Shown here piece after piece: positions 21,599-46,252 of a DNA stretch of 64,000 nt (position 1 is its first letter; every line of letters begins with the position of its first letter). The DNA is from a phage: the sequence record PZ386957.1. One strand, written 5' to 3'. Position numbers and translations under genes: made by a program. The notes below the pieces were generated by a model. The model ran no database searches and was not told the DNA's origin. It was given only the letters and a program-made list of their open reading frames with translations.

Positions 21599-21889
21599 TC
21601 AAATGGTAGTTTTGCGAAGATGGTCATTACATGCTTTTAATGCATCAGTCGCGGTGTCATAGCGAGTATTATCATAGCACCAATCACCATCCGTCAACTG
21701 ATAAATTAATCCATCCTTTTTAGCTTCGATGAAAGATAACTCTTTGAAAGTTTCTACTTTCTTTGCTGACACTCCACGGTCACGGCGTTTGTAAAGTTTC
21801 TTTAAAACTCTTTCCGCTTGTTCTTCTTTCTCGCCAGACAGATCCCAGATAATGCTACGGATATGTTTGATCATTTGTTCGGTGTTCAT
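21599..21889 (-). CDS. Hypothetical protein
   Basis: 96-aa ORF after promoter/leader 21919-21946. Confidence 0.5.
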   Translation of the reverse strand: MNTEQMIKHIRSIIWDLSGEKEEQAERVLKKLYKRRDRGVSAKKVETFKELSFIEAKKDGLIYQLTDGDWCYDNTRYDTATDALKACNDHLRKTTI

Positions 21890-21918
21890 CTTTGATTCTC
21901 CTTAGTTGGTATGTGCGC

Positions 21919-21946
21919 ATTATAACATTGGGATTTTCATTGTCAA
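21919..21946 (-). promoter_or_regulatory. Promoter TTGACA-16-TATAAT
   Basis: Minus-strand read; immediately downstream of terminator 21958-21988; RBS AAGGAG. Confidence 0.7.
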
Positions 21947-21957
21947 CACCTAAAAAC

Positions 21958-21988
21958 AAAAAGGCTATCCCGAAGGACAGCCCATAAA
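21958..21988 (-). terminator. Intrinsic terminator after the glycine-rich protein gene
   Basis: GGGCTGTCC-TTCG-GGATAGCC hairpin then TTTTTGTTTTT. Confidence 0.7.
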
Positions 21989-21990
21989 AA

Positions 21991-22809
21991 TTACACGCGA
22001 GCACCGTAGATCGTGCCAACTTTAGTCCATGTTGGGGCATTACCAGTAACAGCTTTACCAGCAGCACCACCAGGCCACGGAACACCAGCGCGACCAGTAC
22101 CATCATACCATGAGTCGTTAGCCTTAGCACCTGCTTGACCAGCGTCACCACCGTTACCAGCATAATATATATTACCGTTATACGATCCTCTACCCGGCGC
22201 GGTATATGTAGCAGCGGTTGACCCTATTTCCATGTTGGAATATGCACCAGCCGCACCATAAGGACGACCACCACCACCACCCATTGACAACCCAATGATC
22301 GGATAATATGAGTAATAAGCACCGCCACCGCCACCGCCACCGCCAGCGATGACACCATTATTTGTGATGCGTAGACGTGTACCGATACCATTATTGATAG
22401 CAGTCCCGCCAGCTTGTCCAGGACCAGTGCTGGAATTAGTACCGCCATCACCACCCTTACCACCACGACCCCAAACATGGACACCTGGGTTAATGTTTAA
22501 TGTAATATACTCATTAGCAAGATCGCTAGGAAAATCGAGACACGGAACACTAGCAGAATGAGAAACAATATCCCCGGTAATGGTAATTACTACCGGAGTA
22601 GACCCGTGTGATCTTAGATAACTAATCAAAGTATCTTTATTGTAACTATGGTTAGACCCAATACTATAATAAACCTCTTTAGAACGTCCCACCATCGCAC
22701 TCATCCAAGCCGGACGACCTAAGCGTACAGCTTCCATTGCGGCACTCATCCACCGTTGGCCTGTTTCATTAACGGCAGATGATCCTACCCATCCAGAAGA
22801 TATTGCCAT
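21991..22809 (-). CDS. Glycine-rich protein (N-terminal globular region + Gly/Tyr-rich low-complexity region)
   Basis: 272 aa; runs GGGGGGGG, GGKGGDGG, MGGGGGRPYGAAG; correct strand and terminator; alt-frame ORFs over it are GC artefacts. Confidence 0.6.
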   Translation of the reverse strand: MAISSGWVGSSAVNETGQRWMSAAMEAVRLGRPAWMSAMVGRSKEVYYSIGSNHSYNKDTLISYLRSHGSTPVVITITGDIVSHSASVPCLDFPSDLANEYITLNINPGVHVWGRGGKGGDGGTNSSTGPGQAGGTAINNGIGTRLRITNNGVIAGGGGGGGGAYYSYYPIIGLSMGGGGGRPYGAAGAYSNMEIGSTAATYTAPGRGSYNGNIYYAGNGGDAGQAGAKANDSWYDGTGRAGVPWPGGAAGKAVTGNAPTWTKVGTIYGARV

Positions 22810-22825
22810 AAAATTTCCTCACAAG

Positions 22826-22850
22826 AAAAGCCCCAATTAAGGGGCATTGA
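22826..22850 (-). terminator. Intrinsic terminator
   Basis: GCCCCTTAATTGGGGC hairpin then TTTTCTTG. Confidence 0.55.
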
Positions 22851-22863
22851 TTAATAATATTAC

Positions 22864-23085
22864 TTAGATGATCTCTGCTTCAACATTCAGGAAGAAAGAC
22901 CATGTTTTGTTTGGGTAACGAAGCGCCCAAGATTCGGCAGTTTTAACACCAACTTCGAACAATTGACGGCTGGTTACTTTAGCCATACCATCTTCGATGA
23001 TAACGTTTTCAATAATCATCGGGTACTTAGCTCCACGCATGAAACCAAAGCCAGCAGATGATTTGATGATTTTAACAGTTGCCAT
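22864..23085 (-). CDS. Hypothetical protein
   Basis: 73-aa ORF after promoter/leader 23125-23152. Confidence 0.5.
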   Translation of the reverse strand: MATVKIIKSSAGFGFMRGAKYPMIIENVIIEDGMAKVTSRQLFEVGVKTAESWALRYPNKTWSFFLNVEAEII

Positions 23086-23124
23086 TTTGATTCTCCTAGA
23101 AAGTGTCGTGTTTCGATGTGTGCA

Positions 23125-23152
23125 TTATGATATATCCAGATCCGGCTGTCAA
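23125..23152 (-). promoter_or_regulatory. Promoter TTGACA-17-CATAAT with GCACACATCGAAACACGAC leader
   Basis: Minus-strand read upstream of 22864-23085. Confidence 0.6.
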
Positions 23153-23171
23153 CACTTTCTAAGAAAAATTT

Positions 23172-23456
23172 TTAAATTAATCGAATGTAGCCCAAAATTT
23201 CAGCACTTTTAGCCAGACCTAAAACTTCCCATTCAAGGTCGCCGTAGTCATAATTTGCAACCATCAGTTCACCGTTTTTCATACAGCAATCATGAGAGAA
23301 AATTTGCCCCGCATAAACCACGATAGTGATAAACTTTCCTGATTCTGGCGGTGTGGAAGACAAAGCGACCATATGACCATTCAGTTTAGTCACAAGTGAT
23401 GGAACAATAAAATTCGGGTTTACCTGAATCCCTTTCAATTCGTTAGTATCTTTCAT
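23172..23456 (-). CDS. Hypothetical protein
   Basis: 94-aa ORF. Confidence 0.5.
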   Translation of the reverse strand: MKDTNELKGIQVNPNFIVPSLVTKLNGHMVALSSTPPESGKFITIVVYAGQIFSHDCCMKNGELMVANYDYGDLEWEVLGLAKSAEILGYIRLI

Positions 23457-23833
23457 GCCATACCTCTTAAAACACTAATAGCATAATCATGCTGGTTATT
23501 CATAATATCGATTGCATTGTGGTAACGAGCTAAACCATCGAGGATAAATTCTTGTTTATCCTGTTTCAGCTTAGTATCACGCGCAGCCATCAGAGCATCA
23601 AGGACAGGTCCAAAGTGATTGTCTAATTCATATTCGGTCGCAATGTTTCCTATGGCCTCATCGATCCGTGATTCCAATGCTTGTTTTTCGTTGATCACTT
23701 GCTGGGTATATTCCAACACATCAAGAATATCGCGGGTAACATCGCCGTGATAAGGTATTCCCGCGTGAAGGTGATCAATTAGTCTTTGAATATCAATGTT
23801 CAATTGTAGCCCTCCTCTGAAAGTACATCCCAA
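23453..23833 (-). CDS. Hypothetical protein
   Basis: 126-aa ORF. Confidence 0.5.
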   Translation of the reverse strand: MGCTFRGGLQLNIDIQRLIDHLHAGIPYHGDVTRDILDVLEYTQQVINEKQALESRIDEAIGNIATEYELDNHFGPVLDALMAARDTKLKQDKQEFILDGLARYHNAIDIMNNQHDYAISVLRGMA

Positions 23834-24138
23834 ATCGTTGCGTCAAGATGCATTAAGTTCCACATAATAGAGTCATAACTACCGAAGCCAGAAGTAAAAA
23901 TTACATCACACTGTCGATAGGTCTTATGAAAATCGGTGGCTGTCTCTGCATCAATCGGCATATCGTCACCGGAAAGCACCAGACATTTAAGAATCATAAC
24001 TCTGTTAGCCGTCGGCGCTTGCTTAGTCTTTTCAGCATATTTTTCGATGATCCGTTTTGCCTTTTCTTCTTTGATACGTCCAGACATAATCCGGTTTTGG
24101 TATTGATTCATAATAACTTCAATTACATCATTTTGCAT
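23800..24138 (-). CDS. Hypothetical protein
   Basis: 112-aa ORF. Confidence 0.5.
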   Translation of the reverse strand: MQNDVIEVIMNQYQNRIMSGRIKEEKAKRIIEKYAEKTKQAPTANRVMILKCLVLSGDDMPIDAETATDFHKTYRQCDVIFTSGFGSYDSIMWNLMHLDATIWDVLSEEGYN

Positions 24139-24337
24139 TCTTCACGGTCTCCATAATTGTTTTGTAAGCCAGTTTAAGATGATCACCGAAAAACTTTGCG
24201 GTATTACCTTTCGGATCGCGAAGCATTGTTTCTACGATCTCGTCAGCAGTAACAATTTCTCCTTTCTTTGCGGCATGTTCTACCATATACTTCAAAGTTT
24301 CTTCGGAAGCAAGTGCTGCGGCTACTGGATTAATCAT
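24128..24337 (-). CDS. Hypothetical protein
   Basis: 69-aa ORF after promoter/leader 24367-24395. Confidence 0.5.
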   Translation of the reverse strand: MINPVAAALASEETLKYMVEHAAKKGEIVTADEIVETMLRDPKGNTAKFFGDHLKLAYKTIMETVKNAK

Positions 24338-24366
24338 TTTGGTTCTCCTTTGTTGTCGATGTGTGC

Positions 24367-24395
24367 ATTATGCTATACCTTATTCTTGTTGTCAA
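24367..24395 (-). promoter_or_regulatory. Promoter TTGACA-17-CATAAT with GCACACATCGACAAC leader
   Basis: Minus-strand read; downstream of terminator 24401-24431. Confidence 0.65.
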
Positions 24396-24400
24396 CACCT

Positions 24401-24431
24401 AAAAACGAAAAAGCCACCCTTTCGGATGGCT
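24401..24431 (-). terminator. Intrinsic terminator after the 715-aa gene
   Basis: AGCCATCC-GAAA-GGGTGGCT then TTTTTCGTTTTT. Confidence 0.75.
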
Positions 24432-24443
24432 TTTGATTACATT

Positions 24444-26591
24444 TTATTCTCGTCCATTTGTATAGTAGTGTTTGAATCGCCCATAGCCAGTTTCAATAGA
24501 CATATCTTTCTGTCGGACAATCGCCCAATAGCCATTGCATGAATCTTGCAAATACAGATCCTTACCTTTTAGGAACTCGTTAAAGATCGTAATCTGCCAA
24601 TCATAATAGACGGCATCAGCGAGACTATCCATCCAACCATGTGGATCATCCATCAGTTCGACAAGCTCATCGATAACCCAATATGGACACGGGCTAAATT
24701 TACCTTTACTAAAATCATTGAACAAGGTAACAAGTTTAACTTCCGGTCGCGGTTCATCCGGCTGCACAGGTCGTTTATTAACCACAACCTGTACATATTT
24801 CGTATACCCGATGATTTCGCCGGAGTCAAGAGTATCGTTATTGTTCTTATCTGCATAAGCCACAAAACGATAAACACCGGAATCATTTATTGTTGCATTA
24901 GCTTTACGGTAAATCGGCACGCGAGAATCAGCAATAGGTAATTTAACACCAGCTTTGCTAAACTCATAGGTAGGTACATAATCAGCCGGAGGCTTCAACA
25001 TGGTAGCCTCAAGAACAAGCGGTTCACCTTCCGTAATCTGTACCGGATGCGGACCATCAAATTCCATATTAGGCACTACCTCAACATGGTAGGTAGCGCG
25101 TGCTGCAATATCGTAATCGGTATGCGCACTATATGGATCTTTACTCGGACTATCGCGGTATTCATGCGACCAGATACCGTTATGGTCTCGGTCTGCGGAA
25201 TCAGTGATCTTATACTCTTTCGCTTCAATAGGCAAATCTGCGACTTTAACATCATTTTTCAGAATTACTAATGAACGCGTTTGAGTCGGATCACCGCTTG
25301 CTGGCGGTTCTGGATCGACGATCTTAATTACAATCGGTTCACCAATCTCAATATTACGATAATCATATTCTTTATCGTAAATGTCAAGCATACGGCGGTC
25401 ATAGAACAAAGGACGTCCGGTCGGTGTTCTCTGCGGATCATCATCACGCGCGGGAGCCACCAACAGTTGAAGTGCTACGCTATCGTCATATTGCAATTCA
25501 TTAAGCGTAATGCGGTCATATCCCGGATCACCGTATTTCTTGCTTTGGAGTTGCTTACCGCCTAGCATCCACGTAAAGTAAACATTATTTGCAAGCATAC
25601 CATAATGGCGGTTCCATGAGTTATCCGCTGGTAATACTGGCATATCAAAGTTTACTTCCGATCCAGAAGGATAACGAAATTCGATTGCTGCAAAGTCATT
25701 ACGGAAAAATTCGTTTTCCTTAACTTTGACAGTAAATCGGTGTCGCTGCCCTTCAATGAATGATTCACCAGCACCAGGTCCATTAACCACTTTATAGGAG
25801 CGAACGCAAGCTACATATTCACCTGCATCATTTTCGGTAGCATGTTTGGTTGCATAGAGTGTTTTGTTGGTAGACTCATAAACAAGAGTACCGTCGCCAC
25901 GCTCTAAGCGATACCTTACAATGGTATGCTCTGCGTCATTAGGCGCATCATCTTCTACCGTGAAATAAGCTGGTGCATATTTCTGGACATTGAATACTGC
26001 GGGATTTTCCTTAATATCGGCAACAAACGGATAAACAAATTTAACGTCGCCGTGTTCGTCGCTCAATTCCATTCGGTAATTACCGGAAAATTCAGGCCAT
26101 GCAAATTTTGCAATTTTAAATTCACGATGGTCTAATCCCAGATCACCATCAATGGAATCAACGAGGCCATTATTATAATACAGGTCAACCGAAATATTAG
26201 CCGGAATATTACTACGGAAAACAATTTTTGCTTTAATTTCATCACCAATATCAAAAGACGTTGGAGGATGAACATATTCGACAAAGACATTATCGAATAA
26301 ACTAAAGGTAAAGTTTTCCGTGCCGATATCTACGGATTCGCCAGAAAAATTTTCATCATCTTGCGCATAACCACGAAGGTTAACAGACCATCCGGTTTTA
26401 TCCTCTTCTTTCACTGAATCCAATACATAGGAAGGAGTTGCAGTAGTCGCAATGACCTTATTGTCTTTCTTCCACGTAAAACCCTTTTTAGGTTTAGTTG
26501 GTTCAGGGGATTCCCCAGCAAGGGAACAAGCGAAAGTATGAGGAAGCCAAATGGTAGTATTAACGCTAGTATCTTTATTTTCTACTGGCAT
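24444..26591 (-). CDS. Large protein with Ig-like repeat signatures
   Basis: 715 aa; repeated D.G.Y.C motifs (DAGEYVACV, DSGVYRFVA) typical of Ig-like beta-sandwich domains. Confidence 0.6.
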   Translation of the reverse strand: MPVENKDTSVNTTIWLPHTFACSLAGESPEPTKPKKGFTWKKDNKVIATTATPSYVLDSVKEEDKTGWSVNLRGYAQDDENFSGESVDIGTENFTFSLFDNVFVEYVHPPTSFDIGDEIKAKIVFRSNIPANISVDLYYNNGLVDSIDGDLGLDHREFKIAKFAWPEFSGNYRMELSDEHGDVKFVYPFVADIKENPAVFNVQKYAPAYFTVEDDAPNDAEHTIVRYRLERGDGTLVYESTNKTLYATKHATENDAGEYVACVRSYKVVNGPGAGESFIEGQRHRFTVKVKENEFFRNDFAAIEFRYPSGSEVNFDMPVLPADNSWNRHYGMLANNVYFTWMLGGKQLQSKKYGDPGYDRITLNELQYDDSVALQLLVAPARDDDPQRTPTGRPLFYDRRMLDIYDKEYDYRNIEIGEPIVIKIVDPEPPASGDPTQTRSLVILKNDVKVADLPIEAKEYKITDSADRDHNGIWSHEYRDSPSKDPYSAHTDYDIAARATYHVEVVPNMEFDGPHPVQITEGEPLVLEATMLKPPADYVPTYEFSKAGVKLPIADSRVPIYRKANATINDSGVYRFVAYADKNNNDTLDSGEIIGYTKYVQVVVNKRPVQPDEPRPEVKLVTLFNDFSKGKFSPCPYWVIDELVELMDDPHGWMDSLADAVYYDWQITIFNEFLKGKDLYLQDSCNGYWAIVRQKDMSIETGYGRFKHYYTNGRE

Positions 26592-26612
26592 ATTATCCCC
26601 TTATTGCTGACA

Positions 26613-27011
26613 CTAAGCCAGCTTAGTGAGTTTATAGATGGTTTTAAAGCATAGAACTTTAATATCGTCTAAAACGCTCTGTAGAGAGCTATCAACATCA
26701 TTATAAATCTCACTTGCCATTTGCGCTAATTCCTGCAAATAGGCAACTTCGCTAATCTCCTTTCGGACGACCAACGTCGGTTGATATCTTCCGGTAATAC
26801 CGATATTAGTTTCCGTGAAAGTATCAACCAATTCTTGCATTTCAAGATAGAACTCTTCTAGCGCCTTATGTTTTGCGTAAGACCCCGGACCAGTTACCCC
26901 AAAATGCGCAGAATGCATATAAGTAACGCTCATTAGGCATTCACCAATAAAGCGGTCCACATTATTAGCCTTTCCTTCATCGGAAGTTTTTCTAAATTCG
27001 CTGAATTTCAA
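26613..27011 (-). CDS. Hypothetical protein
   Basis: 132-aa ORF. Confidence 0.5.
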   Translation of the reverse strand: MKFSEFRKTSDEGKANNVDRFIGECLMSVTYMHSAHFGVTGPGSYAKHKALEEFYLEMQELVDTFTETNIGITGRYQPTLVVRKEISEVAYLQELAQMASEIYNDVDSSLQSVLDDIKVLCFKTIYKLTKLA

Positions 27012-27301
27012 TTTCGTCGATTCTCCACATTATAAGCAACTACAAATTGCTTCGCAGCATATTCGCCCATCATAAAACATTGTCTTGCATCCATACACCT
27101 ACTACGTGCATATGTTTTCATTAAATGCTCATGAAATTTTTGGCTAGTTTCAACGGATGGTTGGATCTTGCTTATATAGACAATCATCGCACCATCAAAA
27201 TAATCGGTAAAATCACCGACTGGATTATTTTGGTCGGCACTTACACTACCGACTGCCATTAGACAAAATGCTGCGGTTAAAGTTTTACGAATAAATGACA
27301 T
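27008..27301 (-). CDS. Secreted/periplasmic protein with N-terminal signal sequence (rI-like position)
   Basis: 97 aa; N-terminal hydrophobic LTAAFCLMAVGSVSA; sits next to tk where T4 carries rI (97 aa); TATAAATA late-type promoter upstream. Confidence 0.5.
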   Translation of the reverse strand: MSFIRKTLTAAFCLMAVGSVSADQNNPVGDFTDYFDGAMIVYISKIQPSVETSQKFHEHLMKTYARSRCMDARQCFMMGEYAAKQFVVAYNVENRRN

Positions 27302-27334
27302 AAGTCATTCCCCCAGATTAAAAAAGTTCAAGTA

Positions 27335-27342
27335 TATTTATA
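27335..27342 (-). promoter_or_regulatory. T4 late-type promoter TATAAATA
   Basis: Exact TATAAATA on minus strand about 34 nt upstream of the 27301 start. Confidence 0.45.
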
Positions 27343-43584: not shown

Positions 43585-45384
43585 ATGTTAATGATTAATA
43601 ACTCCGTTAAATGGTTTACCGGGATTGTGGAAAACAGGGAAGATCCATTGATGTTAGGACGGTTACAGGTCCGTATTCATGGTGTACACCCTTCATTATC
43701 CGCTCACGGTGATATACAAGGTTTACCGACCGAAGACCTGATATGGATTACTCCAGTACAAGATATTACAAGCGCGGCGATCTCCGGTATAGGCCAAAGT
43801 CCTACTGGTATTGTTGAAGGTTCAATGGTATTTGGTTTAGCCTTAGATGAACGTTATTTGAATTGCCTTATTCTGGGGACAATTGCAGGACAATATACAG
43901 AGCAACCATTAACAACCGAGGGATTTTGTGATCCGTCCGGTGCATATCCTCGCTATATCGGCAACGATGTTAATATTCTTGCTCGCGGCGGGGTTAATCC
44001 ATCAACGGGACAAACAACAAAACCTGATAGTGTCTATATTCGAGATGAAAACACTGGAGTTGCCGTAAATCCAGACGACGAGCCATTAGACCAAATTCCG
44101 GTTGACGATAACCCAGAATACACAATAGAAAAAATGTTGCGGGGCGATGAGGGATATCGCGAGAAATGGTATCTTGATTCAGAAGGATATCCGACAATAG
44201 GCATCGGGCATTTGATCATTTATAAGAAAACCAGTGATCTGGGTATTATCAATAATGAACTTTCTAAGCTGGTAGGGCGTGAAGTTACAAACGGAAGACT
44301 TACCGCCGAAGAAGTTAGTAAAGTATTTGCTGACGATATAGAAAAGACTCGTCGTGATATGCGCAAACATCCACGAATTGCACCTGTCTATAATAAATGT
44401 AATGCCTCACGTCGTATGGCATTAGAAAATATGGCGTTTCAAATGGGTGTTGGTGGATTGGGTAAATTTAAGAATAGTCTTGCTGCAATGCTGGCGGAAG
44501 AATGGAAACAAGCCTATGATGGATTACGTCAATCTGTATGGGCTAATCAAACTCCAGGACGCTCCAGCCGTGTTTCTAAAATTATTTTAACTGGTAACTT
44601 AGAATCATATGGCGTAATTGCTCCAAAGAAAGAGGAATCAATTTCGGATGATCCGCGAGCACGTTTAAGAAATGCCCGTATTGCTGCCTATAAGACACAG
44701 AGAGCAGAAGAAGACCCAGAAGCACCGTTTACCCCACAAGACACACGAATCATGTTTAAAGAGCCTAAGAGTTCGTATTCTGCAAGGTATCCTTATAACC
44801 ATGTGTACGAGTCAGAGAGCGGTCATATTATCGAGATTGATGATACTCCTTCTCATGAGCGATATCATCGTAAACATCCTTCTGGTACATTTGAAGAAAC
44901 CAGACCGGACGGAACGAGGGTAGAAAAGATTGAAGGCGATGACTATTTGATCGTTAAACAAGGCCGGAAAGTAAACGTTAAGGGTAATTTGCAAGTTGTT
45001 GTTGAAGGTGACGCGCAAGTTTATTATATGGGTAATGTTATGCAAACCGTTGATGGTAACGTCACTGAATTTATTCGTGGCAATGTTAATCAGACCGTTG
45101 AAGGCACTGCTAACATGCATGTTGTCGGTGATGTTATCGCACAGCTTGACGCTAATTTGACGGCTAATGTCAAGGGTAATGCTGAATTAATGATCGAGGG
45201 TAACACTACAGAGACAATTAAAGGTAACTATGATTTAACCGTTGAGGGTAATTTTAATATGACCGTCAATGGCACTAAATCAGATCAGGTTAATGGTGAC
45301 TGGTCCCGTAATTGTGGTGCAAGCGTTAAAGATATTGCATCTGGTACAGTTAAAATTGATGGTAGCCGTATTGATCTTGGGTGA
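43585..45384 (+). CDS. 5: Baseplate hub/cell-puncturing protein gp5 with lysozyme domain
   Basis: 599 aa; lysozyme motif GYPTIGIGHL; C-terminal beta-helix VxGxxxxx octapeptide repeats. Confidence 0.9.
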   Translation: MLMINNSVKWFTGIVENREDPLMLGRLQVRIHGVHPSLSAHGDIQGLPTEDLIWITPVQDITSAAISGIGQSPTGIVEGSMVFGLALDERYLNCLILGTIAGQYTEQPLTTEGFCDPSGAYPRYIGNDVNILARGGVNPSTGQTTKPDSVYIRDENTGVAVNPDDEPLDQIPVDDNPEYTIEKMLRGDEGYREKWYLDSEGYPTIGIGHLIIYKKTSDLGIINNELSKLVGREVTNGRLTAEEVSKVFADDIEKTRRDMRKHPRIAPVYNKCNASRRMALENMAFQMGVGGLGKFKNSLAAMLAEEWKQAYDGLRQSVWANQTPGRSSRVSKIILTGNLESYGVIAPKKEESISDDPRARLRNARIAAYKTQRAEEDPEAPFTPQDTRIMFKEPKSSYSARYPYNHVYESESGHIIEIDDTPSHERYHRKHPSGTFEETRPDGTRVEKIEGDDYLIVKQGRKVNVKGNLQVVVEGDAQVYYMGNVMQTVDGNVTEFIRGNVNQTVEGTANMHVVGDVIAQLDANLTANVKGNAELMIEGNTTETIKGNYDLTVEGNFNMTVNGTKSDQVNGDWSRNCGASVKDIASGTVKIDGSRIDLG

Positions 45385-45392
45385 GGTAACTA

Positions 45393-45959
45393 ATGGTTGA
45401 AATTCTTCCGATGAGTTCAAAATTGGAGGATATCAGCGAGCGAGAACTCTTTGAGGTGGTGTTCTCTTATAAAGCAACGCCACCGGATGCAAATACCACA
45501 TACACGATTAAAGAGTTTAAGATCAGCGAGTATCGCCCTAATAAGGGCGTTACCGTTGAAGAAACTAAAATATCTGGTGAGTATCTGGATAGTTTTTCGC
45601 TTGGCGCGGATTCTCTTAAATATATAACGAAAGATCGAATTAAAAAATCTGCCGGAAGTTTTGATGATTTACCAGATCCAACTACCGCAGATCTATATTA
45701 TTTTAACGCTCCTACACGTCTACAGGAGGTTTATACTTATAAAGTAACCCTAACCTATATCCAATCTGTTTCAGAGTCTTCTGGGGGTTCTGGTGAAGGA
45801 AATAGTGGTGGTTCCAATAGCCGAGAGGGTGCTGGTGAAACTAATCCGCCTCCGGTAGTAACAGAGCACACAATAGAGAAAGTTTATACTCAAACCGTTT
45901 TTGGAAATTGGGATGTGTGGGCGCAACAACTAAGAGACTATGTACATAGGGGTGTTTAA
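45393..45959 (+). CDS. Hypothetical protein (5.1 position), Ser/Gly-rich C-terminal region
   Basis: 188-aa ORF between gp5 and the PAAR protein. Confidence 0.45.
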
Positions 45960-46252
45960 TGGCTGGATTATCATATGACAAAGCACGAACAACCGGACAT
46001 GAACAATTTCCACCCACGATAATTAATGCATCACAATCTAAGGTATTCGTTGAAGGTATTCCGGTATTAGTGGAAGGTGATTCTATAATTCCACATACAC
46101 GAACAGTTAAGCCCTATGATACACACGGAGGAACTACCGTAGCCAGTACCCCGAAAGTATTTGTTACCGGAAAGAAAGCAATTCAAATGGCAGATCGTAT
46201 TAGCTGTGGCGATACCGTCGCTATGGCATCTTCTAAGGTTTATATAAGGTAG
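45959..46252 (+). CDS. 5.4: PAAR-repeat spike tip protein gp5.4
   Basis: 97 aa (same as T4 gp5.4); PAAR-like repeats [15 protein letters not shown] and [19 protein letters not shown]. Confidence 0.8.

Follow-up and report, generated by a model that had tools for sequence, protein, structure and literature searches.

At the center of the locus lies gene 38 (g38), an open reading frame (ORF) on the minus strand of the 64-kb window, by which we mean the whole stretch of phage DNA that was analyzed (Table 1). Residues 1 to 115 of its product are of ordinary composition (8.7% Gly). Gly accounts for 29.9% of residues 116 to 272, Ala for 13.4%, and Tyr for 7.6%, and glycine runs occur at residues 156 to 163 (GGGGGGGG, 8 Gly) and 177 to 181 (GGGGG). 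The longer run is encoded by a perfect tandem repeat of the hexanucleotide CACCGC (4.3 copies, positions 22320 to 22345), and homologues carry 7 to 9 Gly at the same position. The glycine pattern of gp38 is not chance low complexity: across 44 homologues, 42 alignment columns are invariant and 26 of these 42 are Gly. The ORF and its composition confirm the original prediction of a 272-residue protein with a nonrepetitive N-terminal part of about 115 residues, a glycine-rich remainder, and a run of 8 Gly. The claim that the gene is real also holds; its ORF is ATG-initiated and correctly delimited. The GC content is 0.49 to 0.50 over positions 21950 to 22550 versus approximately 0.40 in the surroundings; the Gly and Ala codons account for the raised GC, which was not taken as a sign of foreign origin.

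The flanks of the window are 87 to 90% identical to Krischvirus genomes (RB49, Phi1, JSE, GEC-3S, and relatives), and on sequence grounds the window is assigned to a coliphage of this group, that is, to the RB49-like T4-type myoviruses (RB49/Phi1/JSE group). The slot that holds gene 38 is flanked by dam, nrdC, and 49 on one side and by rI, tk, vs, and regB on the other, in the midst of small ORFs that have sigma-70-type promoters. Gene 38 is annotated at the syntenic slot of Phi1, RB49, and GEC-3S, also on the early strand, and the junction between the ORF080 homologue and g38 was found in 44 database records of Krischvirus.

Table 1. Positions of gene 38, the parts of its product, and the surrounding regulatory elements in the window, in the order of transcription
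Feature	Position	Strand	Basis or remark
TATAAATA, T4-type late-promoter motif between tk and rI	27335..27342	minus	nearest on the g38 strand, 4.5 kb upstream
Sigma-70-type early promoter, TTGACA-17-CATAAT, nearest upstream of gene 38	23124..23152	minus	conserved; annotated in GEC-3S
73-aa ORF, homologue of RB49/Phi1 ORF080	22864..23085	minus	ORF list, synteny
Weak hairpin, GCCCC-TTAATT-GGGGC, then TTTTCTT	22830..22845	minus	5-bp stem; terminator annotated in GEC-3S
Shine-Dalgarno sequence GAGGA, 6 nt 5' of ATG	22816..22820	minus	sequence; invariant in 8 phages
Gene 38 ORF, ATG start, 272 aa plus stop	21991..22809	minus	ORF list, Pfam, PHROGs, PDB, fold, synteny
N-terminal attachment domain, aa 1-45	22675..22809	minus	Gp38_N covers aa 1-40
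β-Helix domain portion, aa 46-113 (approximate bounds)	22471..22674	minus	β-strands of the model, alignment with S16 gp38
Polyglycine-II sandwich receptor-binding domain, aa 114-256 (approximate bounds)	22042..22470	minus	invariant Gly, conservation tracks, pLDDT
8-Gly run, aa 156-163	22321..22344	minus	encoded by the perfect hexanucleotide tandem repeat
Conserved C-terminal strand, aa 257-272	21994..22041	minus	last 26 aa conserved
Strong intrinsic terminator, 9-bp stem, UUCG loop, T-tract	21962..21983	minus	−15.3 kcal/mol
Sigma-70 early promoter of the next ORF, TTGACA-16-TATAAT with TG	21919..21946	minus	12/12 hexamer matches; conserved

The original prediction had placed the gene in promoter-driven early cassettes and had given it a terminator of its own, and both statements are borne out: the gene lies on the early-gene strand amid small ORFs with sigma-70-type promoters, and the terminator is the strong hairpin that follows the stop codon. 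The proposed coupling to the upstream gene is wrong, because the two ORFs are separated by a spacer of 54 nt that holds a hairpin and the Shine-Dalgarno sequence of gene 38 itself. A Pfam search with the 73-residue product of the upstream ORF gave no match. Shine-Dalgarno sequences of the TGAGGA type are used by many early ORFs too. The idea that gene 38, unlike its early neighbors, escapes RegB cleavage by having GAGGA without GGAG was rejected, as GGAG occurs in only 22 of 79 minus-strand genes.

Eight Krischviruses have nearly the same bases in all the regulatory elements around gene 38. The stem of the upstream hairpin is invariant in all eight, with one substitution in the loop, in W115, and the downstream terminator is conserved with one substitution, where pairing is kept through G-U. 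A special element was also considered for the near-invariant 54-nt spacer and rejected, given that the whole 420-nt region shows 95% mean column identity. These elements coincide with the published predictions for RB49: the early promoters Pe:46502 and Pe:45336 are equivalent to those on the ORF080 side and of the next ORF, respectively, and the TransTerm terminators at 46164 to 46179 ("38<--RB49ORF080c," 5 bp, confidence 90) and 45339 to 45360 (9 bp, confidence 100) are equivalent to the upstream hairpin and the downstream terminator, respectively.

The product of gene 38 was identified with profile searches. The Pfam family GP38 (PF05268) matches residues 45 to 272 over the whole profile (1 to 218 of 218; 1.6e-70, 237.8 bits against a cutoff of 25), and Gp38_N (PF21721) matches residues 1 to 40, again over the whole profile (1 to 40 of 40; 66.6 bits against a cutoff of 25). 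At E values of ≤0.1, the Pfam scan returned no family besides these two and no tail-fiber assembly chaperone. In PHROGs, the protein matches positions 3 to 267 of 267 of phrog_2056 ("tail fiber protein; host specificity") with an E value of 1.8e-98, and no NCBIfam model matched. Searches of the PDB sequences with phmmer aligned residues 1 to 270 with gp38 of phage S16 (6F45_D, 1.5e-52) and also retrieved the receptor-binding domain of PP01 gp38 (9V85, 2.8e-37). The glycine-rich ORF is the full-length long-tail-fiber adhesin gp38 and no novel type of early protein. The reading implied by the original prediction, something other than a tail-fiber adhesin, fails on the GP38 and Gp38_N matches, the end-to-end homology to S16 gp38, and a fold shared with gp38 only. 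Indeed, a match of the N-terminal region to a structural adhesin had been named in advance as one result that would count against that reading, and residues 1 to 40 are Gp38_N (1.9e-18).

The AlphaFold2 model of the protein, built with 44 homologues, has a mean pLDDT of 89.5 and a pTM of 0.85; 179 of the 272 residues reach a pLDDT of 90 or more, and every segment stays at 50 or above. When the model was compared with the PDB using Foldseek, the sole significant matches were 6F45_D (E of 9.9e-24, TM scores of 0.77/0.84) and 9V85 (E of 4e-20), with TM scores to these solved gp38 structures of up to 0.86, and no structure other than gp38 was found below an E of 3. The three-domain fold, consisting of attachment domain, β-helix domain, and polyglycine-II sandwich, is recovered in the model, where the β-helix portion consists of β-strands with a pLDDT of 91 to 98. 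Pfam, PHROGs, the PDB sequences, and the model are four independent lines that all point to a gp38 adhesin. Its identity, fold, and architecture are shown in this analysis, the fold by way of a predicted structure.

The published architecture of gp38 consists of five glycine-rich motifs (GRMs) that alternate with four hypervariable loops (HVSs) between conserved N and C termini (PMC12032242). Here, the GRMs lie at approximately residues 114 to 120, 133 to 163, 177 to 188, 218 to 227, and 247 to 256, and the HVSs lie between them at approximately residues 121 to 132, 164 to 176, 189 to 217, and 228 to 246. Tracks of per-residue conservation and gaps show the blocks between GRMs to be poorly conserved or rich in indels, and dips in pLDDT are confined to the loop blocks at residues 121 to 130, 161 to 170, and 231 to 240. 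The poly-Gly tracts are the conserved GRMs that build the polyglycine-II sandwich, and, with a confident prediction and fold matches to gp38 only, they are not disorder. The Tyr-rich stretches between GRMs are, judging from the alignment, the hypervariable receptor-binding loops. In the S16 structure the attachment domain docks gp38 on the tip of the gp37 fiber, and the C-terminal strand packs back onto the β-helix domain (PMC12032242).

By analogy with the work on S16, PP01, and RB49, one gp38 monomer would cap each long tail fiber, held at the tip of the gp37 trimer by its N-terminal ∼45 residues. After the β-helix domain, the glycine-rich motifs are predicted to fold into a three-layered polyglycine-II sandwich, from which four hypervariable loops rich in Tyr and Trp would project and bind an outer membrane protein of the host and/or O-antigen. 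Binding to the gp37 tip and presence in the virion are suggested by the identity of the attachment domain to that of RB49-group gp38 (89 to 96%) and by the S16 complex. RB49-like gp38 is known as the long tail fiber protein that binds the receptor, and the host range mutations E230K and Y231S map in gp38 of RB49 and relatives (Golomidova et al. 2022, PMC9569957).

Two other identities can be weighed against that of an adhesin. The position of gene 38 on the early strand amid small sigma-70-driven ORFs, together with 30% Gly and sparse DSSP secondary structure in the C-terminal half of its product, is what would be expected of a novel disordered glycine-rich early protein without a structural role, acting in condensates or host takeover. 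Missing DSSP helices and strands are, however, expected for polyglycine-II helices. A disordered protein is at odds with the end-to-end homology to the solved adhesins 6F45_D and 9V85, with a confident model that resembles gp38 only, and with the mapping of RB49 host range mutations to gene 38 (PMC9569957), so that we regard this identity as extremely improbable. Scarcely more credible is a tail-fiber assembly chaperone of the T4 gp38 type, absent from the virion, although the records of RB49, JSE, GEC-3S, PHB13, JEP8, and ELT4 label the gene "distal long tail fiber assembly catalyst" or "tail assembly protein." Pfam gives adhesin families only at E values of ≤0.1, the S16 adhesin that sits on the gp37 tip has an equal fold, and T4 gp38, a lambda-derived, Tfa-like chaperone not found in the virion, shares the gene number but belongs to an unrelated family (Trojet et al., PMC3157838). 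These labels were carried over from the name of the T4 gene, and the identification as an adhesin corrects this frequent misannotation as "assembly catalyst," "tail assembly protein," or "hypothetical protein."

The usual place of g38 in T2-type phages is directly after gene 37 in the late operon (PMC3157838), whereas here it is displaced. In Phi1, genes 34 to 37 occupy positions 144,965 to 154,585 on the strand opposite g38; g37 itself (151,643 to 154,585, plus strand) and g38 (44,989 to 45,765, minus strand) are ∼55 kb apart on the circular map, and the usual place of g38 behind g37 is taken by the small ORF252 and the holin gene. Adjacency to g37 in the late fiber operon, a trait that is usual in the family, is not seen at this locus; since it does not define the family and nonadjacency is normal in this lineage, the position does not contradict the identification as gp38. 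Gene 37 lies outside the 64-kb window. The odd position of g38 among early genes has reportedly been in the literature since the description of the RB49 genome. An adhesin-like module in an early region, which had drawn attention to the gene, is a genuine oddity, and a published peculiarity of RB49-like phages: the g38 of RB49 was described as "displaced elsewhere in the genome" (Trojet et al. 2011, PMC3157838).

Since no late promoter is found nearby and hairpins stand on both flanks, gene 38 lies between two terminator-like hairpins and is without a recognizable promoter of its own. On the strand of gene 38, the intergenic DNA from position 22810 to 27335 has no match to TATAAATA with one mismatch or less. 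The sole one-mismatch match in this interval, TATGAATA at 23504 to 23497, falls within a coding region, and the two one-mismatch matches nearest gene 38, at 22399 and 23504, are both within coding regions. The only late promoter predicted on the g38 strand in this region of RB49, Pl:48756, matches the motif between tk and rI.

The hairpin upstream of gene 38 is probably a terminator or an attenuator, and we infer that the gene is expressed by read-through of its weak 5-bp stem. Early in infection, transcription would begin from the sigma-70 promoter that serves the ORF080 homologue, and/or, in the late phase, from the late promoter at rI, which lies 4.5 kb upstream. As an attenuator, the hairpin would keep the dose of gp38 low, which fits six copies per virion. 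The same layout of promoters and terminators is predicted in RB49 and is consistent with read-through. A transcript from the late promoter would have to cross two terminator-like stem-loops, at 24434 to 24409 and at 22845 to 22830. Given the TransTerm confidence of 90 for the RB49 hairpin and the finding that one PeSL stem-loop is an effective terminator (Arbiol et al. 2010, PMC2839356), read-through could be poor. A search of the literature for Krischvirus transcript or proteome data found none.

The flanking terminators, which would otherwise insulate gene 38, also speak for a different arrangement, in which the spacer TAAGTAATATTATYAATCAATG holds an unrecognized promoter of gene 38, for example, a degenerate late one, and the hairpin stabilizes the 5' end of the mRNA. 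Late transcription is what is expected for a late structural gene, and the spacer is nearly invariant in the eight phages; its conservation is, however, no higher than that of the neighboring coding DNA (95% mean column identity). The best motifs in the spacer, TATTATTA and TATTAATC, are each two positions off TATAAATA, and Nolan et al. predicted no late promoter at the corresponding spacer of RB49. We therefore consider a promoter within the spacer unlikely. Taken as a whole, the locus is very probably best explained as gene 38 of a Krischvirus that encodes the fiber-cap adhesin, lies in a displaced cassette, and would be expressed by read-through.

The boundaries of this cassette can be compared with those of the cassettes described for RB49 and Phi1, where a PeSL is a stable stem-loop (often GGGG...CCCC) beside an early promoter of sigma-70 consensus (Arbiol et al. 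2010, PMC2839356). Gene 38 forms a self-contained cassette in the hyperplastic early region, away from gene 37 and with putative PeSL-type boundaries. Its downstream boundary is a complete PeSL, made of the strong terminator and the promoter of the next ORF, and its upstream boundary is the GCCCC...GGGGC stem-loop alone, from which the closest promoter is another 280 nt away in the upstream direction. PeSL cassettes usually carry small ORFans of unknown function, whereas this one carries an essential component of the virion. Neither gene 38 nor its flanking ORFs are mentioned by Arbiol et al. 2010 (PMC2839356).

Presence/absence polymorphism with a clean empty site, another trait of PeSL cassettes, was also found for gene 38, and its breakpoints fall in the PeSL elements. 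Gene 38 fills the slot in 44 Krischvirus records, and 14 records, among them FL04, FL15, FL20, kvi, G37-3, and MIZ4/5, match only ORF080. In FL20 and kvi, the empty site is precise: the stop codon of ORF080 directly joins an early promoter that has a GGGG...CCCC hairpin in its own spacer. In kvi, the one empty-slot phage checked for this, a T2-type g38 stands in the canonical order g37, g38, ORF252 homologue, and holin. Judging from these sequences, g38 would occur in Krischvirus in two mutually exclusive configurations, in the displaced slot or at the canonical site. The g37 of kvi is 42% identical to that of Phi1. The variable loops of kvi gp38 and of the displaced gp38 of Phi1 are almost the same, and the N-terminal halves differ, a pattern that GRM-mediated shuffling would produce. 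The slot polymorphism has already been glimpsed in the literature.

The gene family, the structure, the RB49-like function, and the displaced position of g38 are already published; the divergent loops of this allele, the empty slot in 14 Krischviruses, and a g38 without a recognizable promoter of its own are new here. We can also envisage, as a tentative extension that we find somewhat doubtful, that the RB49-type adhesin is made mainly early, from a sigma-70 promoter through a leaky 5-bp attenuator, and stockpiled, that its cassette can be swapped without g37, and that the present allele perhaps recognizes a new receptor. If so, a fiber-tip adhesin would be uncoupled from the late operon, a structural protein of the virion would be made early, and a PeSL-bounded cassette could allow the gain, loss, or exchange of a receptor-binding gene without any change in gene 37. 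The locus points to the timing of expression and the choice of promoter when a structural gene lies in an early cassette with terminators on both sides.

Compared with its relatives, gene 38 of the window has the same slot order as that of RB49, Phi1, JSE, GEC-3S, and other Krischviruses (ORF080 homologue, hairpin, g38, terminator plus promoter, and ORF078 homologue) and shares the strand, the regulatory elements, and the domain architecture of the RB49-group gp38. It differs from them in overall identity, in the loops, in two insertions, and in aromatic content. With gp38 of S16 (6F45 chain D) and PP01 (9V85), the protein shares the attachment domain, the β-helix domain, and the polyglycine-II sandwich, whereas the identity is 41 to 44% and the receptor-binding loops are others.

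The divergence of the allele is modular along gp38. Overall, the product is 62 to 65% identical to the gp38 proteins in the phage collection. In a set of 5.8 billion clustered proteins, the nearest is P0001, which is metagenomic and 92% identical, and the next one is 71% identical; P0001 lies on a 1.5-kb contig and so offers no usable genomic context. The attachment domain is 96 to 98% identical to the closest sampled homologues and 89 to 96% identical to the 44 displaced-type Krischvirus gp38 proteins, with at most 73% identity to anything else. The last 26 residues are 96 to 100% identical to gp38 of the Tequatrovirus type (e.g., P0011 and P0042), closer than to the gp38 of Krischvirus.

The differences in the loops are larger. 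In the hypervariable segments at residues 164 to 176 and 189 to 246, identity to every sampled relative except P0001 is no higher than 47%, and two insertions, at residues 121 to 126 and 232 to 237, go with a length of 272 residues versus ∼258 to 260 in other Krischvirus gp38 proteins. The Tyr/Trp-rich loops of the allele possibly confer a new receptor specificity, and an allele with aromatic-rich variable loops could help to predict or engineer host range. Indeed, the aromatic content of the binding domain is 9.6% versus 5.5 ± 1.3%, the highest of the 44 sampled sequences.

Gene 38, which encodes the long-tail-fibre adhesin gp38, occupies one of two mutually exclusive positions in the genus Krischvirus. 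A total of 44 Krischvirus records share the arrangement of the window, with the gene in the early hyperplastic slot, and this slot is without the gene in 14 others. The sole empty-slot record checked, kvi, carries a T2-type gene 38 after gene 37 in the canonical late position (locus L011, 4493-9071, in the order g37-g38-holin), and its gene 37 is divergent, with 42% identity to that of Phi1.

The gp38 encoded at the canonical site of kvi (L011, 7299-8075) was compared with the displaced gp38 of Phi1 (locus L002, 8107-8883). The variable loops, spanning roughly aa 150 to 240, are nearly identical, and the N-terminal halves differ. This combination indicates that the specificity region of gp38 has been exchanged between genes of two different loci or lineages.

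In place of the gene 38 cassette, the empty-site phages FL20 and kvi have an early promoter, the -35/-10 spacer of which holds a GGGG-AGAAAT-CCCC hairpin (TTGACAcGGGGagaaatCCCCgTATAAT). A hairpin within the promoter spacer is an unusual arrangement. It may mark the recombination scar.

Coordinates of features at and around the early slot of gene 38
Feature	Location	Strand	Remark
Empty-site sequence	L009 2400-2560		FL20
Empty-site sequence	L010 2400-2560		kvi
Early promoter	L009/L010 about 2440-2500	minus	Replaces gene 38 cassette in empty-site phages
715-aa ORF	window 24444-26591	-	Between rI.-1 homologue and PeSL (promoter-early stem-loop) at 24434-24367
Overlapping ORF	window 21855-22163	-	Other frame than gene 38
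Overlapping ORF	window 22224-22484	-	Other frame than gene 38
Overlapping ORF	window 22013-22138	+	Other frame than gene 38
Overlapping ORF	window 22349-22561	+	Other frame than gene 38
Perfect CACCGC x4.3 tandem repeat	window 22320-22345		Encodes 8-Gly run of gene 38

The labels given to the syntenic gene 38 differ among Krischvirus database records. "Distal long tail fiber assembly catalyst" and "tail assembly protein" are misnomers inherited from the unrelated T4 gp38 chaperone; other labels include "hypothetical protein," "receptor-recognizing protein," and "tail fiber adhesin."

Of the Krischvirus records, just six (JK32, Brandy, UPWr_E1, SSG23, SFHK24, and G2248) have a syntenic full-length homologue of the 715-aa ORF, with 77 to 83% identity and in every case the label "hypothetical protein." The ORF is reduced to a C-terminal remnant, ORF084.1, in Phi1 and to a 36-aa N-terminal remnant in several further records. 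The 715-aa protein is weakly similar to Ig-like, Hoc, and whisker proteins: Pfam Ig_2 scores 22.7 bits, under the cut-off of 27, and the Hoc protein of a Klebsiella phage is 26% identical.

The four overlapping ORFs, 41 to 102 aa long and read in frames different from that of gene 38, are by-products of its stop-poor, GC-rich Gly/Ala codon periodicity and do not merit annotation as genes. The CACCGC repeat is likely a slippage hotspot; gp38 homologues have 7 to 9 Gly at the corresponding position, and an equivalent repeat is annotated in one record, TB34.
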